Assembly (NCBI GenBank): GCA_022777645.1
Contig: JALFFX010000055.1
Coordinates: forward strand, 2,705 to 66,704
Direction: 5' to 3'
Length of the DNA stretch: 64,000 nt
DNA from: Erysipelotrichaceae bacterium
GTDB taxonomy: Bacteria; Bacillota_I; Bacilli_A; RFN20; CAG-826
Position numbers and translations under genes: made by a program. Below the pieces are notes generated by a model that was not told where the DNA came from, searched no databases, and saw nothing but the letters and a program-made list of their open reading frames with translations. How positions within the stretch are numbered: position 1 is the stretch's first letter; every line of letters begins with the position of its first letter. This document shows positions 5,101 through 24,186 of the stretch, piece after piece.

Positions 5101-5284
5101 ACAATTTACACTCACAGTAAATTATAACCCAGAAAATTCATTAAACATTTCTTATTGTGATGAGAAAAACATAATGATAGTTCAAACATTTCAATTAAAA
5201 TCAAAATTAACTGAAAAATCATTAGTTAAATTGATTAAAAAAGTTCAAAAAGAATTGGAGGAAAAAGAAAATGAACAACAATAA
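5081..5284 (+). CDS. hypothetical protein
   Basis: 67-aa ORF overlapping neighbours by a few codons. Confidence 0.5.
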   Translation: MMKKLNKQFTLTVNYNPENSLNISYCDEKNIMIVQTFQLKSKLTEKSLVKLIKKVQKELEEKENEQQ

Positions 5285-6734
5285 TAAATTAGCGCTTAAT
5301 GCAATAAGAGCATATAAAGCAAAAGCACTCAAAGACTCTAAAGATGCTAAACCAGAAGGCGATAAAGTGAAAGCCTATAATAATGCATTAACTTATGCTA
5401 AGAAAGAAAATAAACCGTTCATTTATGGCTATACTAATCGTAATGGTAAATTCTTTGCAATTGATACACCAATGAAAGTTTCAGTAAGTCCTGCAGATGC
5501 TGAAAAAGAATTTAGAAAAAGATATAAAAATTGCAGTGTAGTTTATATTGCATATCCAGATAAAGAATTTATTAAAGATGAAAAAATTGATGTTGAAAAA
5601 GAACTTTTAGCAAATCATTTTGAAAAACGTAAATGCAAACCAGGTATCAATGGAAATGATATTTGTTACTATGATTACAAAGGAACGGGATATTTTCCAG
5701 AAGTTGTTGCTAGATTACAAAATAAATTAGGCAAATTTGACTATGTTGGTGAAACTAATAGAATTGTTGGTATTAAACACAAGCATAAATCATTAAAAGA
5801 AGATGCAGTTGAATTATCACTTGGTGAAAAATTAGCAAAAGCAGTTGCAAAAGCATTCAAAGGTCAATGTGGTCCTTTTGGTGGAGAAAATCCAACTAAA
5901 TATGGAAATAAAGTCAGTTTATATTCTCAAGCTGGAGTCACTTGGTACATATTTAATGATGATGGCTCTGTTGATGTTGAACCAGATGATGAAACTATTA
6001 GTTTGGCTGAAGAAGATGGTGAAGAAATTACAACACATTATAATTCAGCAGATGAATTATTTAATGGTGAAGATGGTTGGTTCTATGATGCTCCATCAAG
6101 TTTAGAAAAACAATTTAGAGAAATTTTAAAAACACGTTCAAATGTTAAAGATGCAAATTTGTATATTTACCAATTCCCAGCAAGTATGACTAAAGAAGAC
6201 ATGAAAGAAGCTAAAAAATATGGTTTAGAAATTCTTGGTAAAGTCGGTGAAAATGGTTTTCAACCTGGTGACTGGATTATTCAAGGAACACTTAAACAAC
6301 TTGAAAAATTCTGTGATGAGTCATTAGGTTATGTTATGCACCCAGACTATTTATATAAGTCTAAAGAATTTGATATTGAAGATGTATTAGTCAAAGATGA
6401 AGCACTTGGTGAAGTGCAAGTCGACGAATTTGCTGAAGAAGAACCAAATGTTTCTAAAAAAATTGAACATCAAGGTAAATGGACAAAGAATGAAATCAAT
6501 GGTCAAGAAATGACAGTTGAACAATTCTTAGAAGAATATGATGCTGGAAATTTACCTATAGTAGATGCAATTTATCCAGAGTCAGGTGGTTTTAAAATAT
6601 CAATTGAAGAAGTTAGAAAATTACCAAAAGATACTATGGGTAGATTCTTAATCTATGACGATGAAGTTGAAGTTGATGATGAATTTGGTCCATATATTAG
6701 TCATTTGTTATGGTTTCAAATTGAAGGCATTTAA
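5271..6734 (+). CDS. hypothetical protein (487 aa, acidic C-terminus)
   Basis: long ORF, GGAGG RBS. Confidence 0.7.
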   Translation: MNNNNKLALNAIRAYKAKALKDSKDAKPEGDKVKAYNNALTYAKKENKPFIYGYTNRNGKFFAIDTPMKVSVSPADAEKEFRKRYKNCSVVYIAYPDKEFIKDEKIDVEKELLANHFEKRKCKPGINGNDICYYDYKGTGYFPEVVARLQNKLGKFDYVGETNRIVGIKHKHKSLKEDAVELSLGEKLAKAVAKAFKGQCGPFGGENPTKYGNKVSLYSQAGVTWYIFNDDGSVDVEPDDETISLAEEDGEEITTHYNSADELFNGEDGWFYDAPSSLEKQFREILKTRSNVKDANLYIYQFPASMTKEDMKEAKKYGLEILGKVGENGFQPGDWIIQGTLKQLEKFCDESLGYVMHPDYLYKSKEFDIEDVLVKDEALGEVQVDEFAEEEPNVSKKIEHQGKWTKNEINGQEMTVEQFLEEYDAGNLPIVDAIYPESGGFKISIEEVRKLPKDTMGRFLIYDDEVEVDDEFGPYISHLLWFQIEGI

Positions 6735-7206: not shown

Positions 7207-8655
7207 ATGAAAAGAAAAATTAGTGATGCTACTAAAAAATTAATTGACTCTTCAAATGAGTTAAAAAAGAAAATTGATGACGCTTTAGAACAACATCCTG
7301 ATTTAGTCGCTGGTAAAAAAGCATCAGTTGCTTATGATTTAGCAAAACATAAAAGTGAAATCAATGCAACAAAAAATTACAAACCTTTAAGAGATTTAGT
7401 TGTATCTATTTTAGAAAAATCGAGTCAACCAAAAGCAAAAAAGTATTTAGCAAAAATTGAATATGAATTTGATAAAAAAGTTGCTCGTGACCCAAGAGAA
7501 AATAGTTATAATGAACAATTTTGGTTTAATCAACTATTAGCATTTATTTACAACATTATATTAAAAGCTGATAATCTTGGTTCACCAGATGTTAAAGATG
7601 ATGTTAACATTTTAAAATCATTGCAAAAACGTCACTATCAACAAATGCATGATTCATGTGTCATTGATGAGAAAAAATTTAAAGATGCTGAAGAAGGTTA
7701 TGCTGAAAAAGTTTTTATTGATTTCGTAAAAGCATTTAAACAAACATTACCTAACTGGACATTATATCCTGATAAATGGATTCAAAAAGGTGAAAATTCA
7801 TTATTAAAATTTGAAGTAATAATTTATGAAGAAGATGTTGCAGTTGAAGATATGGATAAAGAATTCAATGATAAAGAAGTAAGAAATGTAATTTATCAAA
7901 CAGCTGAAGAAAATATAAAACAAATTTTACCTAGCAATGTTCAATATGAATTCAAATCATTACAAACAAATTTTAAAGCTGATGATGCAAGTTTTTTAAG
8001 ACTTGATAATCATGATATTGAAATGGATAGAAATTTTCTTGCAACATCAGTAAAAAATGGTGATAAAATTGATATGTCATTTTTAGATGATAGACAAAAA
8101 GTAATTGTTATCAATATTCATGATGATGTTGAAGATAAAAATAAATTGTTTGGTTCAATTACAAGTCAATTATATAAACGAGGTGCTCATATTTTTGATA
8201 AAAAATCTGAAAGACCAAATAAGATATTGTATGCATACGAAGATATGCAATTATTTGAATTAAATTTCAATTTATTATTAAATGGAATTTCTCAATGGTC
8301 AGTTGCTAGTGAAAGAGAAAATAGAAAAATTATTGATTTAGATGCATATACAATAAGAGGAACATTTGACTCTATTAAAGATGATGTAGACCCAATGCTC
8401 ATTCTTTGCAGATTACTTGGTGAAGCACATGATAAAGCTATGGAAGCTCTAGATTTAGCAAAAGATTTGATTGAAGAAGGTGAGTTACCATCTAACTTCG
8501 AATATGAATTAATTGATTTAAATGATGAACTTGATGAATTTGATTTTATGAGTGAAAATAACCCTGTTGATGCGTTTAAAGAAAAATTCGGCAAAAAAGA
8601 AGAATTTGATATTAATGATTCTGATTACGATTGGGATTATGAAGAAAATGATTAA
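7207..8655 (+). CDS. hypothetical protein (482 aa, acidic C-terminus)
   Basis: long ORF, AAAGGAAGGAAAT RBS. Confidence 0.7.
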   Translation: MKRKISDATKKLIDSSNELKKKIDDALEQHPDLVAGKKASVAYDLAKHKSEINATKNYKPLRDLVVSILEKSSQPKAKKYLAKIEYEFDKKVARDPRENSYNEQFWFNQLLAFIYNIILKADNLGSPDVKDDVNILKSLQKRHYQQMHDSCVIDEKKFKDAEEGYAEKVFIDFVKAFKQTLPNWTLYPDKWIQKGENSLLKFEVIIYEEDVAVEDMDKEFNDKEVRNVIYQTAEENIKQILPSNVQYEFKSLQTNFKADDASFLRLDNHDIEMDRNFLATSVKNGDKIDMSFLDDRQKVIVINIHDDVEDKNKLFGSITSQLYKRGAHIFDKKSERPNKILYAYEDMQLFELNFNLLLNGISQWSVASERENRKIIDLDAYTIRGTFDSIKDDVDPMLILCRLLGEAHDKAMEALDLAKDLIEEGELPSNFEYELIDLNDELDEFDFMSENNPVDAFKEKFGKKEEFDINDSDYDWDYEEND

Positions 8656-14964: not shown

Positions 14965-16152
14965 ATGAAAAGTAAATTTATTACTCACATCGTTTTAGAA
15001 GGATGTGATGGAGTTGGTAAAGACTCAATTATGGCTGATTTATGGCCAAAGTATAATTTCAGATACAGAGTATTAATGAGAGGTGAACTTTCAGATTTTG
15101 TTTATTCAAGAAAATATAATCGCGAATTTATCTCAACACAAAGAGGTTTACCTTTTCTTTATGTTTTAATTACAAAAGATGTCAATGAAATTCGTAATCA
15201 AATTATCAAACGTGGTGAAGATGTTGAAAATGAATTGAAAAAATTAGCAGACCAAGAACTTTTTAAAACTTGTGCAAAAATCTTTGAACAAGATTATCAT
15301 ATCATAGTTGTTGATGTCACAGGATTGACAATTCAAGAAGGTTCTGAGAAGGTTTTTAATGAAACATTAAAATATATTAATAATTTAGATAAAGATGACG
15401 AGCCAAATGAGTTTAATAAAATGTATATCAAAGGTGCAAATAAACTTGGACTTAAATGGACAGTTAGAAATAATCAACCATTTTTAGATGGTGAAATGAT
15501 TATGGCAGATGCACAATTACACAATGGTCGATTTGAAACATACGATAATCGTGATATGCCTCATAACTTAATTTTTAGTATCGGATATGATTATCAAAAT
15601 GAAGATACAATTGATGAATTTATGTCAAGACCATATGATTTTGCTTATCCAATTAATAGTAAAATTTTAGTTCGTGGTGAAATATATGATTACATTGATA
15701 AACTCTGTCGAAACAATTTAACATTAGTCACAACTGACTCAAAGTATATTCCACCATTTGAAAACTTAATTAGAGTTGATAAAGTATTTGGCGATGATTA
15801 TATCAAAATGTTAACACAAGCAAAAGCAACATTTTATTGTTCAAGAGATTTAGCATATCTTGAAATGATGACAGTAAGATGTTATGAAGCAGTAAGAGCA
15901 AATCAATTAATATTTGTTGATAGATTGACTGACCCTGAATGTAAAATTTTAAAAGCAATTCATGGGACAAGTTTAGATGACATTATATTGAGTAAATTAT
16001 GGTGTACTGAAAATACATTGACAAATAATTATAAAGAAATTATTAAAAATAAAGAACTTGTTAAATTAATTTTGAAAAATCAAAGACAATGGTATCAAAA
16101 TTTATGCAAAGAGTTATATAATAAAAAAGTTAAAAAATGGCGAAGAAAATAA
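14965..16152 (+). CDS. P-loop (deoxy)nucleoside-monophosphate kinase-like protein with ~200-aa C-terminal extension
   Basis: N-terminal VLEGCDGVGKDS resembles the thymidylate/dNMP kinase P-loop (xEGxDGxGKxT); 395 aa is far longer than standard dNMP kinases. Confidence 0.5.
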   Translation: MKSKFITHIVLEGCDGVGKDSIMADLWPKYNFRYRVLMRGELSDFVYSRKYNREFISTQRGLPFLYVLITKDVNEIRNQIIKRGEDVENELKKLADQELFKTCAKIFEQDYHIIVVDVTGLTIQEGSEKVFNETLKYINNLDKDDEPNEFNKMYIKGANKLGLKWTVRNNQPFLDGEMIMADAQLHNGRFETYDNRDMPHNLIFSIGYDYQNEDTIDEFMSRPYDFAYPINSKILVRGEIYDYIDKLCRNNLTLVTTDSKYIPPFENLIRVDKVFGDDYIKMLTQAKATFYCSRDLAYLEMMTVRCYEAVRANQLIFVDRLTDPECKILKAIHGTSLDDIILSKLWCTENTLTNNYKEIIKNKELVKLILKNQRQWYQNLCKELYNKKVKKWRRK

Positions 16153-20490: not shown

Positions 20491-20973
20491 ATGTGCGACG
20501 AAGATTTAGATTTAATTAATGATGAGTCTCATTTAGAAGACTTAGAAAATGAAAGATATAATCGACCATCTTGGCAACAAACATTTATTGATGTCGCCAA
20601 AGTTGTTTCAAAACGCAGCAAAGACCCTCATACAAAAGTAGGTTGTGTTCTTGTTAAAAATAATTGTATTGTTGCAACAGGTTATAATGGTGACCCAAGA
20701 GAATTCAGATATGAGTTTAATTGGAATACTGAAGAAAAATATAATTATGTTGTTCATGCAGAAATGAACACAATCGCAAATGCTGTATATAATGGAGCAG
20801 GAAATAATATTAAAGATGGTGAAGTCTATTTGACATTATCACCTTGTAGTAAATGCATTTTATTGCTCATTCAATTCGGCATTAAAAAAGTTTATTATCT
20901 TGAAGAATATAAAGATTTTGAACTTACAAAGAAAATTGCAGATAATGCAAACATTCGATTAATAAAAATATAG
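20491..20973 (+). CDS. dCMP deaminase
   Basis: zinc-binding signature HAE (VVHAEMNTI) and PCxxC (SPCSKC). Confidence 0.8.
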   Translation: MCDEDLDLINDESHLEDLENERYNRPSWQQTFIDVAKVVSKRSKDPHTKVGCVLVKNNCIVATGYNGDPREFRYEFNWNTEEKYNYVVHAEMNTIANAVYNGAGNNIKDGEVYLTLSPCSKCILLLIQFGIKKVYYLEEYKDFELTKKIADNANIRLIKI

Positions 20974-20984
20974 GAGAGATAATT

Positions 20985-21719
20985 ATGAGAATATTTGAAG
21001 GAAACACTATTGCTGAAGTATATGGTGATGCTGTAAAAAGTCTTTTAACTGCTGATGTAGTTGGAAGTACTAGAGAAATTAACAACTGTGTTCTTATAGT
21101 TCACAATCCAACATTAGAAAACATTTCATTTCCATATCGTAAACCTTTATCATTAAAATATTCAAATGCAGAATTAAGATGGTATTATTCAGCTGATAAT
21201 TCTTGTCACACAATTGGTCAACATGCTAAAATGTGGTTATCATTATCAGATGATGGTGAAACAAACAATTCTGCATATGGTTATATTTTATTTAAGAAAT
21301 ATGGATTTAATCAATTAGAACAAATTATTGAATTATTGAAGAAAGATACAACTACTCGTAGAGCTGTATTGAATATATCAGACCCATCAATTAATCGTAT
21401 TACTACAAAAGATATGCAATGCACAATTGCTCTTGATTTCTTAATTCGTAATGGTGAATTAGAAGAAACAGTTGTGATGCGTTCAAATGATGTGTTTTTC
21501 GGTTTTCCATATGATTATATATTCTTCGTTAGTTTAGGACAATATATTGCTAAAAGATTAGGACTTAAATTAGGTTTATATACACATCATGCAATATCAT
21601 TTCATATGTATTTAAGAGATGTTGATAATTTTAATTACCAAAATTCAACAACATTTACAATTGACGCAGAATCTATTATTAAGGAGTGTTATGAATATGA
21701 AAAGAATAACACCAATTAA
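20985..21719 (+). CDS. thymidylate synthase (ThyA)-family pyrimidine-nucleotide C5-transferase, divergent (candidate dCMP hydroxymethylase/methylase)
   Basis: aligns by eye to ThyA core: MQC (PCH, catalytic Cys retained), MRSNDVFFGFPYDY (QRSCDVFLGLPFNI, Asp at the N177-equivalent position), ISFHMY (GDTHLY). Confidence 0.6.
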   Translation: MRIFEGNTIAEVYGDAVKSLLTADVVGSTREINNCVLIVHNPTLENISFPYRKPLSLKYSNAELRWYYSADNSCHTIGQHAKMWLSLSDDGETNNSAYGYILFKKYGFNQLEQIIELLKKDTTTRRAVLNISDPSINRITTKDMQCTIALDFLIRNGELEETVVMRSNDVFFGFPYDYIFFVSLGQYIAKRLGLKLGLYTHHAISFHMYLRDVDNFNYQNSTTFTIDAESIIKECYEYEKNNTN

Positions 21720-21963
21720 AGTTAGATATTTAGCAAATGAAATTCATGATTTATTCAATATTTGTTTAGATAATGCATTAGCATTATTAAATGATGATGA
21801 ATTAGGAAGATGTTTTGATGATAATAATGAAATTGATATGAATTATATTGAAGTAAAAGTTATCAATCCAAATGCTACATTAAAGATATTATATGATGCA
21901 GCAACATTATTAGATAAAATGTCAAGTATTTATGATAAGGAGAGAACAGTAAATGAAAATTAA
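21691..21963 (+). CDS. hypothetical protein
   Basis: start reassigned to ATG 21691/21697 after AAGGAG; overlaps the end of the ThyA-like gene. Confidence 0.4.
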   Translation: MNMKRITPIKVRYLANEIHDLFNICLDNALALLNDDELGRCFDDNNEIDMNYIEVKVINPNATLKILYDAATLLDKMSSIYDKERTVNEN

Positions 21964-22366
21964 ATTATTTGATAAAAATGTAAAAATACCTACTAAGTCA
22001 CATTCTACTGACTGCGGATTAGATTTATATTTACCAGAAGGTTTTATCATTAAACCATTAGAAACTATATGTCTTGGACTTGGTATTGGTTTCTCAGTTC
22101 CAGAAGGAGCTGCAGGAATATTTGTTCCAAGAAGTAGTATTGCTAAAAAAGGTTTAGTAATTACACCTGCAATTACTGACTGTGGCTATAGTGGAGAAAC
22201 ACATTTGATTTTGACAAATTGTTCAAATAATACTTATACATTTAACAAAGATGATAGAGTTTGCTCATTTGTTTGTTTCAATATCATAAATCCACTTATC
22301 GAAATAGTTGATGAATTACCATCAAGTGAACGTGGTGACAAAGGTTTAGGTTCAACTGGTAATTAA
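21953..22366 (+). CDS. dut: dUTPase (trimeric dUTP diphosphatase family)
   Basis: all five dUTPase motifs are present: DCGLDL, PRSS, ITDCGYSGE, DRVCSF, ERGDKGLGSTG. Confidence 0.8.
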   Translation: MKIKLFDKNVKIPTKSHSTDCGLDLYLPEGFIIKPLETICLGLGIGFSVPEGAAGIFVPRSSIAKKGLVITPAITDCGYSGETHLILTNCSNNTYTFNKDDRVCSFVCFNIINPLIEIVDELPSSERGDKGLGSTGN

Positions 22367-22368
22367 TT

Positions 22369-24186
22369 ATGAAAATAATTATTTGGGATTTTGAAGTATT
22401 TAAACATGATGTCTTATTAGGGACAATTATTGTTGACGGACAAAATCAAACTGTTTATCAAACATGGGATGAAGATGAAATTAGAGCATTCTATCAAGAA
22501 CATAAAAATGACATTTTTGTTGGACATAATTCTACATATTATGATGACCTTATATTAGAAGCAATTGTTCAGCATAAAAGTGCTTATGAAAAATCACAAC
22601 AAATAATTAATGGTGGAATTAGACGTAAAGCAAAATTTCATTTATACTCATATGATTTAATGTCAGTAAGTAGAACACCATTTAGTTTAAAATTAACTGA
22701 ATTGATTTGTGGTAAAAACATTCATACAACAGACGTTGATTTTAATTTAGATAGACAATTAACTGATGAAGAAAAAAAGTTGACTGAAAGTTATAATTTA
22801 GATGATTTAAAACAAACATTATATAACTTCAATATGTTCTTCAATCAGTTTAAATTAAGAATGCAAATTATTCAAAAATATAATTTAGATTTAATGCATA
22901 ATTTGAGAGTCACAGGAACACAATTGGCAGCTAATGTTTTAGGCGCACACAATGACCCTTCATTAAAACATAAACCAATTCCTGCTGAAATATATCCGAC
23001 ATTAAGATTAGAAAATAAACGTCTTCGTGAATTTTATTTAAATGAAGAGTTTAGACAAGGTAAATCTGATATAATTAATGTCGCTGGAGCAGAATTGACA
23101 ATTGCTGCTGGTGGAATTCATTCAGCAATTAAAAAATTTCATGCACCAAAGATATTTTATGCAGATGTATCTGGCTATTATAATCTTGTTATGATGAACC
23201 TTGATTTATTACCAAGAACAATGCCGACTGAATCAAAAGAAGCATATGAGTTTATGTATCATGAACAATTACGTTTAAAGAAACATCCGGAACTTGCTGA
23301 TGAACGTTCAATGTATAAGACAATTTTGTTGTCAGTATTTGGAGCAATGAATAATGAATATACAGATTTCTATGACCCTTGGAAAGCATTATTAGTTACT
23401 ATCAGCGGACAATTATTCTTAGTTGATTTATTAGAAAAAATGGAAGGACTTGTCACAGTTGTGCAAGCAAATACAGATGGTTTAATGCTAATACCAAATG
23501 ACTGGAATGATGAACCAAAACTTATTAAAATAATTGAAGAATGGGAAGCACGTACAGGATTTGTTATTAAAAAGGAACATGTGTATAATTTATGGCAAAG
23601 AGATGTTAACTGTTATATTTGTCAAGATGAAAAAGGTGGAGTAATTTTTAAAGGTGATACATTCAGAAATTATGTTGTTGATGATGTTCAATATGCATCT
23701 TGTCGATTATTTGATTGTAAAGAACCACCAATTATTGCACAAGGAGTAGGAGATTATTTGTTATATGGTAAATTACCAGAAGATACAGTAAAAGAAAAAG
23801 CTCAAAACTTAATTTTATTCCAATATGCATGTAAAAAATTAAGTTATAATTATATGACTGAAGATAAGATATTGTTATATAAAACAGAAAGAGGTAAAAT
23901 AAAAGAAGAGTTAATTTCATCTAAAGTAGTCAAACCATTAAATCGTGTATTTGCTGCTAAACCAGAATATGTTGAAGGTTTGCCAATAATCACAATTCTT
24001 ACAAAACATAAAGATGCTAATGGTAAACATAGTACATCGAAAGTCGCAAACTTACCTGACTCAGTATTTATCTATAATGAAGATATAACAAATGCTTATG
24101 ATAAATTAAAAGATAAAATAAATTGGCAATATTATATTGACCGTATTTACGAAAAAATATTAGATTTCATGCCGGAAGGAGATTAA
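22369..24186 (+). CDS. family-B DNA polymerase, compact phi29-like type (605 aa)
   Basis: ExoI DFE, ExoII HNSTYYDD (HNxxFD-like), motif A YADVSGYYN, motif B KTILLSVFG, motif C ANTDGLML. Confidence 0.55.
   Translation: MKIIIWDFEVFKHDVLLGTIIVDGQNQTVYQTWDEDEIRAFYQEHKNDIFVGHNSTYYDDLILEAIVQHKSAYEKSQQIINGGIRRKAKFHLYSYDLMSVSRTPFSLKLTELICGKNIHTTDVDFNLDRQLTDEEKKLTESYNLDDLKQTLYNFNMFFNQFKLRMQIIQKYNLDLMHNLRVTGTQLAANVLGAHNDPSLKHKPIPAEIYPTLRLENKRLREFYLNEEFRQGKSDIINVAGAELTIAAGGIHSAIKKFHAPKIFYADVSGYYNLVMMNLDLLPRTMPTESKEAYEFMYHEQLRLKKHPELADERSMYKTILLSVFGAMNNEYTDFYDPWKALLVTISGQLFLVDLLEKMEGLVTVVQANTDGLMLIPNDWNDEPKLIKIIEEWEARTGFVIKKEHVYNLWQRDVNCYICQDEKGGVIFKGDTFRNYVVDDVQYASCRLFDCKEPPIIAQGVGDYLLYGKLPEDTVKEKAQNLILFQYACKKLSYNYMTEDKILLYKTERGKIKEELISSKVVKPLNRVFAAKPEYVEGLPIITILTKHKDANGKHSTSKVANLPDSVFIYNEDITNAYDKLKDKINWQYYIDRIYEKILDFMPEGD

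Follow-up and report, generated by a model that had tools for sequence, protein, structure and literature searches.

A predicted dCMP hydroxymethylase and a nucleotide kinase fused to a beta-glucosyltransferase-like domain in an uncultured low-GC myovirus

Introduction

In bacteriophage T4 the deoxycytidine monophosphate (dCMP) hydroxymethylase gp42, an enzyme of the thymidylate synthase (TS, ThyA) superfamily, yields 5-hydroxymethyl-dCMP (hm-dCMP), which is phosphorylated, incorporated into DNA and then glycosylated. Gene 42 abuts b-gt, the gene of the beta-glucosyltransferase (BGT); the kinase is gp1, and the phage also has a dCMP deaminase (cd) and the dCTPase/dUTPase gp56. Here we describe a 64,000-nucleotide stretch of DNA (the window), which is most of the genome (~67-69 kb in full) of an uncultured myovirus, and in it a gene for a ThyA homolog. 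The window shares with T4 the dCMP deaminase and, as predicted, the order of steps, and its ThyA homolog is likewise linked to a BGT-type domain. Its kinase, in contrast, is of the YorR/thymidylate kinase (TMK)-like type and is fused to the C-terminal domain of a BGT that lacks the BGT N-terminal domain, the only candidate for the part of gp56 is a divergent trimeric dUTPase homolog, and, unlike T4, the phage has no thymidylate synthase of its own among the scanned open reading frames (ORFs).

The nearest annotated homologs of the window enzyme (45-50% identity) belong to the Enterococcus phages VPE25, VFW, 9183 and Planchet (Andrewesvirinae) and to Lactobacillus phage ATCCB, the VPE25 and VFW enzymes (48-50% identity, one ThyA-like locus per genome) being the closest cultured relatives. 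VPE25 and VFW DNA is resistant to bisulfite, EcoRI and MspI and susceptible to PvuRts1I, a behaviour that was ascribed to glycosylated 5-hydroxymethylcytosine (5hmC) (PMC4999554). The gene order is kinase-position ORF (annotated hypothetical), hydroxymethylase, dUTPase and BGT in VPE25; kinase ('Nucleoside/nucleotide kinase'), hydroxymethylase, dUTPase, polynucleotide kinase and glycosyltransferases in Planchet; and kinase-like ORF, hydroxymethylase and BGT in ATCCB. In these phages the dUTPase gene adjoins the hydroxymethylase gene, and separate genes encode the kinase and a full-length BGT of two domains, further glycosyltransferases being present as well, whereas in the window kinase and BGT-type parts are fused: the stand-alone kinase is homologous to the N-terminal and the BGT to the C-terminal domain of a single window protein. 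The remainder of these ~86-kb genomes, which encode a Pol III alpha-type replicase, is unrelated to the window.

In the clusters of phages RB69, DLP3 and RL38J1 a TMK/YorR-like nucleotide kinase, the first glycosyltransferase and a ThyA homolog occur together (PMC13326640, Table 1). No specific role was given to the kinase in that 2026 study, which found that ThyA homologs with N177D, L143D/E plus D169N make 5-hydroxy-dCMP, the D169N change being diagnostic (PMC13326640). The reaction uses a flavin-derived cofactor (PMC13326640). The kinase and the glycosyltransferase are separate proteins in these clusters, unlike in the window, and there are dedicated genes for UDP-arabinose or UDP-galactofuranose. 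The CMP hydroxymethylase MilA of Streptomyces rimofaciens (PDB 5b6d, 5jnh) is, like the window enzyme, of the cytosine-specific (Asp) type, but serves antibiotic biosynthesis rather than phage DNA modification. In a metagenomic survey (MetaGPA), ThyA homologs co-occurring with dCMP-deaminase domains were specific to contigs with modified cytosine (PMC8670742).

Results and Discussion

Residues of the ThyA homolog

ORFs of the window were scanned against the Pfam, PHROG and NCBIfam libraries. The product of the ThyA homolog gene (Table 1) matched Thymidylat_synt (PF00303) in Pfam with E 2.9e-21. When it was compared with all PDB chains by phmmer, the top match was MilA (E 1.3e-22), followed by T4 dCMP hydroxymethylase (3.5e-13); every thymidylate synthase ranked below these two, with E 1e-10 or weaker. 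Overall identity to gp42 was only 29%, while the set of active-site residues was the same. HMMER alignment to the PDB sequences and MAFFT alignments with E. coli ThyA, T4 gp42, the SP10 dUMP (deoxyuridine monophosphate) hydroxymethylase, the Xp12 ThyA homolog and the Enterococcus and Lactobacillus phage homologs identified residue 146 (MQC) as the catalytic Cys and placed Arg166-Ser167-x-Asp169 in the sequence MRSND. In both alignments Asp177 stood opposite E. coli Asn177 and T4 Asp179, and its codon, gat, was read directly from the DNA. An earlier inspection of the letters and translations (the sequence-only reading) had aligned this protein by eye to the TS core, with the catalytic Cys and the RSxD motif kept and Asp at the Asn177 position; the alignments upheld all of this. 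The changes from PCH to QCT and from GDTH to ISFH, which it had also pointed out, are real, and represent the T4 gp42 states (MCT, GSLH) rather than degeneration.

Conservation was assessed in 121 sequences, the query and its 120 best metagenomic homologs (56-98% identity). Glu63, Ser96, Tyr98, Arg125, Asp143, Cys146, Arg166, Ser167, Asp169, Asp177, His207 and Tyr209 were each invariant (121/121), and the sole variation at the diagnostic positions was Arg126 to Lys, in six sequences. Asp177 is thus a fixed trait of the family and not a chance substitution.

A mutagenesis study built on the ternary complex of T4 dCMP hydroxymethylase found that Asp145, three residues before the catalytic Cys (position Cys-3), Ser94, Tyr96 and Asp179 are required for hydroxymethylation, and described Asp145, Ser94, Tyr96, Glu60 and Asp179 as the hydroxymethylase signature (PMC6400193). 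Thymidylate synthases have Leu at Cys-3, and their C-terminal tail closes off the site for hydride transfer (PMC6400193). In the window protein the signature is complete, and it does not vary within the 121 sequences. The protein extends 37 residues past the His207 equivalent (30 in T4, 57 in E. coli), and its C-terminus is unrelated to the TS tail ending in GIKAPVAI, so that a tail sealing the folate site is absent from the alignment. Written as the residues at Cys-3, 169 and 177, the code is D/D/D in the window protein, in T4 gp42 and in all the Enterococcus and ATCCB homologs; it is L/D/N in E. coli ThyA, N/D/D in Xp12, D/D/N in the SP10 dUMP hydroxymethylase and E/N/D in the RB69 type (PMC13326640). 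Every feature of a dCMP hydroxymethylase that can be read from sequence was therefore found: a ThyA domain with its Cys, Asp177, the Asp143/Ser96/Tyr98/Glu63 set, and no TS tail. We conclude that the gene very probably encodes a 5-hydroxymethyl-dCMP synthase. Ser167 and Arg125/Arg126 are the deoxyribonucleotide-specific states, in contrast to MilA, which prefers the ribonucleotide by virtue of Ala176 and Lys133 (PMC6400193).

Table 1. Features of the window discussed in the text
Feature	Position	Strand	Size	Evidence or remarks
Kinase plus BGT-like fusion (predicted)	14965..16152	+	395 aa	AlphaFold2 model, Foldseek, hhalign
dCMP deaminase (ComEB / T4 cd type)	20491..20973	+	160 aa	PF00383, phrog_174
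Predicted dCMP hydroxymethylase (ThyA superfamily, T4 gp42 type)	20985..21719	+	244 aa	PF00303, alignments, residue code
Key residues of the hydroxymethylase: Glu63, Ser96, Tyr98, Asp143, Cys146, Asp169, Asp177	Asp143, 21411-21413; Cys146, 21420-21422; Asp177, 21513-21515	+		
Small ORF	21697..21963	+	88 aa (114 aa if start 21619)	called as 88-aa gene in contig L007
Trimeric dUTPase-family protein	21953..22366	+	137 aa	PF00692
DNA polymerase	22369..24186	+	605 aa	phrog_1252, E 2.7e-98

The same protein is deposited in GenBank as MCI6330155.1, 'MAG: thymidylate synthase [Erysipelotrichaceae bacterium]', encoded on a 69,098-bp contig. An ordinary thymidylate synthase, as this label and the PF00303 match would have it, is the least likely identity of all those weighed: Asp replaces both Asn177 and Leu143, the C-terminal tail is absent, and all scores against the NCBIfam TS equivalogs were below cut-off (best 92.1 bits versus 174.55). 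Public labels in this system are generally uninformative or misleading, the hydroxymethylase being called a thymidylate synthase and a homolog of the fusion described below a 'Deoxyguanosine kinase'.

The sequence-only reading had left the product open between 5-hydroxymethyl-dC, 5-methyl-dC and 5-hydroxymethyl-dU. The first of these is selected because the residue code matches that of T4 gp42; Asp at Cys-3 speaks against the second and Asp177 against the third. A dCMP methyltransferase leading to 5-methyl-dC DNA as in Xanthomonas phage Xp12 could be suspected since the Xp12 ThyA homolog also has Asp177 and also has a dCMP deaminase gene next to it. At Cys-3, however, Xp12 has Asn and ThyA has Leu where the window has Asp, and the corresponding D145N exchange leaves the T4 enzyme inactive as a hydroxymethylase (PMC6400193). 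Dihydrofolate reductase, which is needed after hydride transfer, is encoded adjacently in Xp12; neither it nor a canonical ThyA or ThyX was found among the scanned window ORFs. Furthermore, Thr147, Met165 and Asn168 of the window protein are T4 states, in place of the Pro, Leu and Ser of Xp12. A methylase is thus highly improbable; that the ThyA homolog is the methylase in Xp12 is itself an assignment by inference.

About equally improbable is 5-hydroxymethyluracil as the final base, made either by an enzyme acting on dUMP or by a deaminase converting hm-dCMP to hm-dUMP. The deaminase gene lies directly upstream of the ThyA homolog, and an Agathobaculum phage homolog with 43% identity is annotated as deoxyuridylate hydroxymethyltransferase. 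However, the bona fide dUMP hydroxymethylase of SP10 has Asn177, whereas both the window and the Agathobaculum proteins have Asp. In some relatives that retain the hydroxymethylase, fusion and dUTPase genes the stretches read showed no deaminase, which is therefore not a committed step, and in VPE25 the modification sits on cytosine (PMC4999554).

RB69 gp48, like the other ThyA homologs of the RB69, DLP3 and RL38J1 clusters, shares Asp177 and an acidic Cys-3 residue with the window protein, and in RB69 and DLP3, too, a TMK-like kinase and a glycosyltransferase accompany it (PMC13326640). A 5-hydroxy-dCMP synthase of this type, which would start an ether-linked glycosyl-5-hydroxycytosine, is nevertheless extremely unlikely: the diagnostic D169N is missing, Asp169 being present in all 121 sequences. 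In summary of the residue comparison, canonical TS, dCMP methylase, dUMP hydroxymethylase and 5-hydroxy-dCMP synthase were all rejected as identities of the window protein, and a cytosine-specific ThyA-superfamily enzyme, as the sequence-only reading had proposed, is backed by Asp177 and the code as a whole.

Two observations concern other phages. The Agathobaculum phage AB434P2 protein WAX05085.1 (L024:3838-4500; L numbers denote related contigs and loci) has Asp177, Asp at Cys-3 and Asp169 despite its 'deoxyuridylate hydroxymethyltransferase' label, and because this is the dCMP hydroxymethylase code its substrate is probably mis-annotated. Bacteroides phage BF486P2 carries two ThyA-superfamily paralogs (L025:1153-1914 and L025:3986-4666), both with Asp177 and Asp at Cys-3; BF486P2_27 has Leu and Tyr in place of the Glu58 and Trp80 equivalents.

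The kinase-BGT-like fusion protein

A dNMP-kinase-like gene had been noticed upstream of the ThyA homolog, and it does lie there, 4.8-6 kb away. Its product, of 395 residues, gave no confident Pfam match, and tblastn against 50,697 phage records returned nothing. Residues 1 to ~145 form a YorR/thymidylate-kinase-like P-loop nucleotide kinase (GCDGVGKDS), and residues ~175-385 a domain resembling the C-terminal, nucleoside diphosphate (NDP)-sugar-binding domain of the GT-B fold of T4 BGT. The statement of the sequence-only reading that no glycosyltransferase was recognisable has to be withdrawn in view of this domain, which was seen both in the structure model and in profile comparisons. The AlphaFold2 model, made with 43 family sequences, had a pLDDT of 92.2 and a pTM of 0.86, and T4 BGT was its top Foldseek match. 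In hhalign, fusion residues 178-381 aligned with residues 159-339 of a BGT profile built from three sequences (T4, VPE25 and ATCCB) with 92% probability and E 6.5e-7; with trimmed domains the values were 94% and E 2.5e-8. The three-sequence profile was needed, as comparison of the fusion family with single BGT sequences was weak (7-10% probability). Searching Pfam with the isolated C-terminal half gave Glyco_trans_1_2 only, at a sub-threshold E of 0.12, and was not used as evidence.

Six residues of the fusion, Tyr228, Lys233, Arg237, Arg305, Glu308 and Asp319, are invariant in 43/43 family members. In the trimmed-domain register they face BGT Tyr186, Arg191, Arg195, Arg269, Glu272 and Asp283, respectively, which are invariant in the three BGTs. 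In the BGT crystal structures Arg191, Arg195 and Arg269 bind the phosphates of uridine diphosphate (UDP), and Glu272 the ribose. With regard to family GT63, the C-terminal NDP-sugar-binding Rossmann domain with the Arg191/Arg195/Arg269/Glu272 site is present in the fusion.

The N-terminal half, too, has stand-alone relatives: in profile-profile comparison, residues 9-141 matched the Planchet kinase with 96.9% probability (E 1.7e-10) and the ATCCB kinase with 91.7%. Since both halves are matched by profiles, the fusion, as judged from sequence, joins a VPE25-type kinase to a BGT-type donor domain. The protein is accordingly not filed as a member of the BGT family, because the BGT N-terminal domain with the catalytic Asp100 is absent; we predict it to be an hm-dCMP kinase plus a sugar transferase acting on 5-hydroxymethylcytosine.

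Homologs of the fusion were found in metagenomes (58, all of 373-403 residues). A phmmer search with the C-terminal domain in 1.84 billion representative proteins yielded 22 proteins, nearly all of 375-430 residues with the domain at ~180-390, indicating that among those representatives the domain exists only in fused form. In 185,579 representative bacterial and archaeal genomes no relative of the fusion was found. BFVD/UniProt contains one full-length homolog, A0A8S5VBD8, labelled only 'Deoxyguanosine kinase'.

Gene linkage in related phages

The arrangement of the genes was compared in 12 related loci, drawn from IMG/VR and from metagenomes. In nine of them the fusion and hydroxymethylase genes are direct neighbours, in either order, and the adjacency persists when fusion identity has fallen to 34-40% and the neighbours are otherwise rearranged. 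In 7 of the 12 loci the cluster is completed by the dUTPase homolog. The window and its near-identical counterpart, contig L007, differ in that the fusion gene has shifted ~5 kb upstream, its usual slot being taken by an unrelated ORF of 88 codons. This small ORF overlaps the 3' end of the hydroxymethylase gene; it had no Pfam, PHROG or NCBIfam match. The possibility that it is a relic of the translocated fusion gene was rejected by hmmsearch, and in the Agathobaculum and Manatee Spring phages the proteins encoded just after the hydroxymethylase were likewise rejected as fusion homologs. On two short contigs, L023 and L018, the fusion gene was found with no detectable hydroxymethylase gene; L018 ends at the fusion gene. 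In L023 (4628-8263), a distant relative with 29% identity on an 11.8-kb contig, the fusion gene directly follows the genes of an anaerobic ribonucleotide reductase (NrdD/NrdG).

The sister phages L008 and L009 carry five genes between the fusion gene and the dUTPase and polymerase genes (L008:11896-16024, L009:6437-10565), which are not in the window. They encode an unknown protein of 272 residues, a choline/ethanolamine kinase, an NTP-transferase, an EamA transporter and LicD, a licA/licC/licB/licD-like set, the four Pfam-family genes all scoring above gathering thresholds. In L011 and L012 only the NTP-transferase gene is in the slot after the fusion gene. The lic-like cassette could serve to elaborate the modified base in a phosphocholine-type manner; alternatively, it could act on the host cell wall or teichoic acid. 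In the former case a cytosine hypermodification that bears phosphocholine, so far undescribed in any DNA, would follow; this possible new hypermodification is the most interesting lead, although it lies outside the window.

Deaminase, dUTPase homolog and polymerase

The three ORFs that the sequence-only reading had listed, for the deaminase, the ThyA homolog and the dUTPase, were all confirmed in position and length (Table 1). The deaminase, recognised as such already then, matched PF00383 (dCMP_cyt_deam_1) with E 4.9e-27 (94.2 bits versus a cut-off of 25) and phrog_174 with E 1.4e-41, and has both zinc motifs, HAE and PCxxC, as VHAEMN and SPCSKC. It scored below the ComEB equivalog cut-off (72 versus 219). 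The position of its gene varies among relatives, and in L013 and L014, which keep the other three genes, none was detected in the ~20 kb read of each. By its distribution it is an accessory gene, which would supply dUMP and drain dCMP.

The dUTPase had been called canonical. Its family stands (PF00692, E 4.3e-26, 91.6 bits versus a cut-off of 22), but it fell below both NCBIfam cut-offs (91.2 versus 102.55 and 78.7 versus 103). Motifs I-III are present; relative to E. coli Dut, the Gln of motif IV is replaced by Ser and the Phe of motif V by Leu. These substitutions are conserved in the sub-clade of the window, and L008 carries the variant enzyme plus a canonical paralog (L008:2591-3007 and L008:16189-16599). 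It is possible that the specificity of the variant has diverged, perhaps to that of a dCTPase, and the homolog is the sole candidate for clearance of dCTP. The polymerase gene lies directly downstream of the dUTPase gene in relatives as well.

Proposed pathway

Taken together, the sequences and the fusion model point to a likely compact pathway of the T4 kind, with 5hmC, probably glycosylated, as its end product. The ThyA homolog would take dCMP, with Asp177 protonating and recognising cytosine N3/N4 and Cys146 attacking C6. The methylene group of methylenetetrahydrofolate would be transferred to C5 of dCMP, and water activated by Asp143, rather than hydride, would be added, Ser96 and Tyr98 holding the proton-abstracting water, to give hm-dCMP. 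The N-terminal P-loop kinase domain of the fusion would then phosphorylate hm-dCMP, a role that sequence and model make moderately likely, and host NDP kinase would complete the synthesis of hm-dCTP for incorporation by the phage polymerase. Finally, the BGT-like domain would bind an NDP-sugar and transfer the sugar onto the 5-hydroxymethyl group. Whether sugar transfer is active, and the final base is glycosyl-hmC and not plain hmC, we consider an even chance from the same kinds of evidence. Since genes for NDP-sugar donor synthesis were not found in the window, the donor would most simply be host UDP-glucose. The deaminase and the dUTPase homolog would feed dUMP to the host thymidylate synthase and also lower the dCTP and dUTP pools.

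Several observations weigh against this pathway, or against parts of it. For the N-terminal acceptor, DNA-binding Rossmann domain of BGT and its catalytic Asp100 no counterpart was found in the fusion, which has the kinase fold instead, and for this reason glycosylation and its substrate remain a prediction. A dCTPase of the MazG, gp56 or PRA-PH type was not found among window ORFs of at least 90 amino acids, to which scan the negatives on accessory genes refer; nor did L015, in which the 3-5 kb lacking from the window were read, show a dCTPase among the small early ORFs there. Without a MazG/gp56-type enzyme complete replacement of cytosine is not assured. Moreover, the evidence from VPE25 bears on VPE25 DNA, not on the VPE25 enzyme.

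A further point is the avoidance of certain restriction sites. The window contains four GATC sites (40437, 58889, 61280 and 63934) against 161 expected (observed/expected 0.02, z -12.4). CATG is depleted to 0.57 of the expected number, and there is a single GATATC where 18 are expected; other C/G palindromes are mostly near expectation. Avoidance of GATC is common to most of the clade and to a B. fragilis phage. It is absent from L010, L018, L022 and L023 and also, in contrast to the window, from VPE25 and Planchet. Avoidance of GATC and CATG is unexpected if every cytosine carries a bulky protective group. The site counts suggest a GATC-specific host nuclease that the predicted modification does not neutralise; either the nuclease tolerates the modification, or replacement or glycosylation is incomplete. 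Because of the GATC avoidance, the lack of a dCTPase, the divergent dUTPase and the missing acceptor domain, our high confidence in the 5-hydroxymethyl-dCMP synthase does not carry over to the glycosylated base, which we leave evenly balanced.

The pathway might also stop at plain 5-hydroxymethylcytosine, the fusion acting only as an hm-dCMP kinase and its BGT-like domain having a non-catalytic (nucleotide-binding, regulatory or scaffolding) function. This ending would agree with the absence from the fusion of a GT-B acceptor domain and of an Asp100 counterpart, with the lack of NDP-sugar synthesis genes in the window, and with the GATC/CATG avoidance, which suggests that some cytosine-containing sites are still vulnerable. 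We regard it as unlikely, though a serious competitor, since the counterparts of six BGT-invariant residues are themselves invariant throughout the fusion family, the BGT-like domain is kept in every homolog found among the 1.84 billion representatives, relatives have NTP-transferase or lic donor genes directly after the fusion gene, and a hydroxymethylase is paired with a BGT in T4, ATCCB and VPE25.

For the favoured pathway with sugar transfer, a more daring version is that the fusion represents a new kind of nucleobase glycosyltransferase, in which the kinase domain has replaced the GT-B acceptor domain. We find this doubtful. If it were so, the dNMP-binding pocket would recognise hm-dC, and the sugar would be added, perhaps to the nucleotide or in a manner coupled to phosphorylation. 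This would explain why a YorR/TMK-like kinase stands beside the first DNA glycosyltransferase in RB69, DLP3, RL38J1 and the VPE25-type phages.

A ThyA homolog with Asp177 together with a dCMP deaminase is an established signature of modified cytosine (PMC8670742), and the finding at the level of the base is therefore of a known type; a non-canonical pyrimidine in the virion DNA, as the sequence-only reading had expected of a T4-like gene set, is a reasonable prediction from the sequence. What is new is the kinase fused to a BGT-like domain, the tight linkage of the fusion to the hydroxymethylase, and the trimeric dUTPase homolog that replaces a MazG dCTPase. The fusion is a Rosetta-stone link between the kinase and the first glycosyltransferase, which are found as neighbours time and again in several unrelated hypermodification clusters, and offers a single small protein on which this link becomes testable. 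The predicted, probably glycosylated 5hmC would extend a well-known anti-restriction strategy of phages to an uncultured clade. DNA of this kind is refractory to many restriction enzymes and gives abnormal results in bisulfite, enzymatic-conversion and nanopore workflows, a point of importance for viromics and phage engineering.

Genome context

The window has a G+C fraction of 0.29 over its whole length, with most 2-kb windows at 26-33%, and the genome is 71-73% A+T. The early and replication genes form a plus-strand block from ~2 to 24.6 kb, and the structural genes (terminase, tail sheath, major head protein, protease, baseplate and portal) lie on the minus strand. The window yielded no tRNA genes. 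Among cultured phages there is no close relative, identity to their polymerases reaching 31% at most. The phage belongs to a clade of low-GC myoviruses of ~67-69 kb, one contig of which was binned with an Erysipelotrichaceae metagenome-assembled genome (MAG). Searches of the GTDB representative genomes with an exact 51-mer and with the fusion family gave no match; no host could be read from prophages. Two large proteins of the early region, encoded at 5271-6734 (487 aa) and 7207-8655 (482 aa), belong to no Pfam or PHROG family; the former is 582 residues long in the near-identical contig L007.

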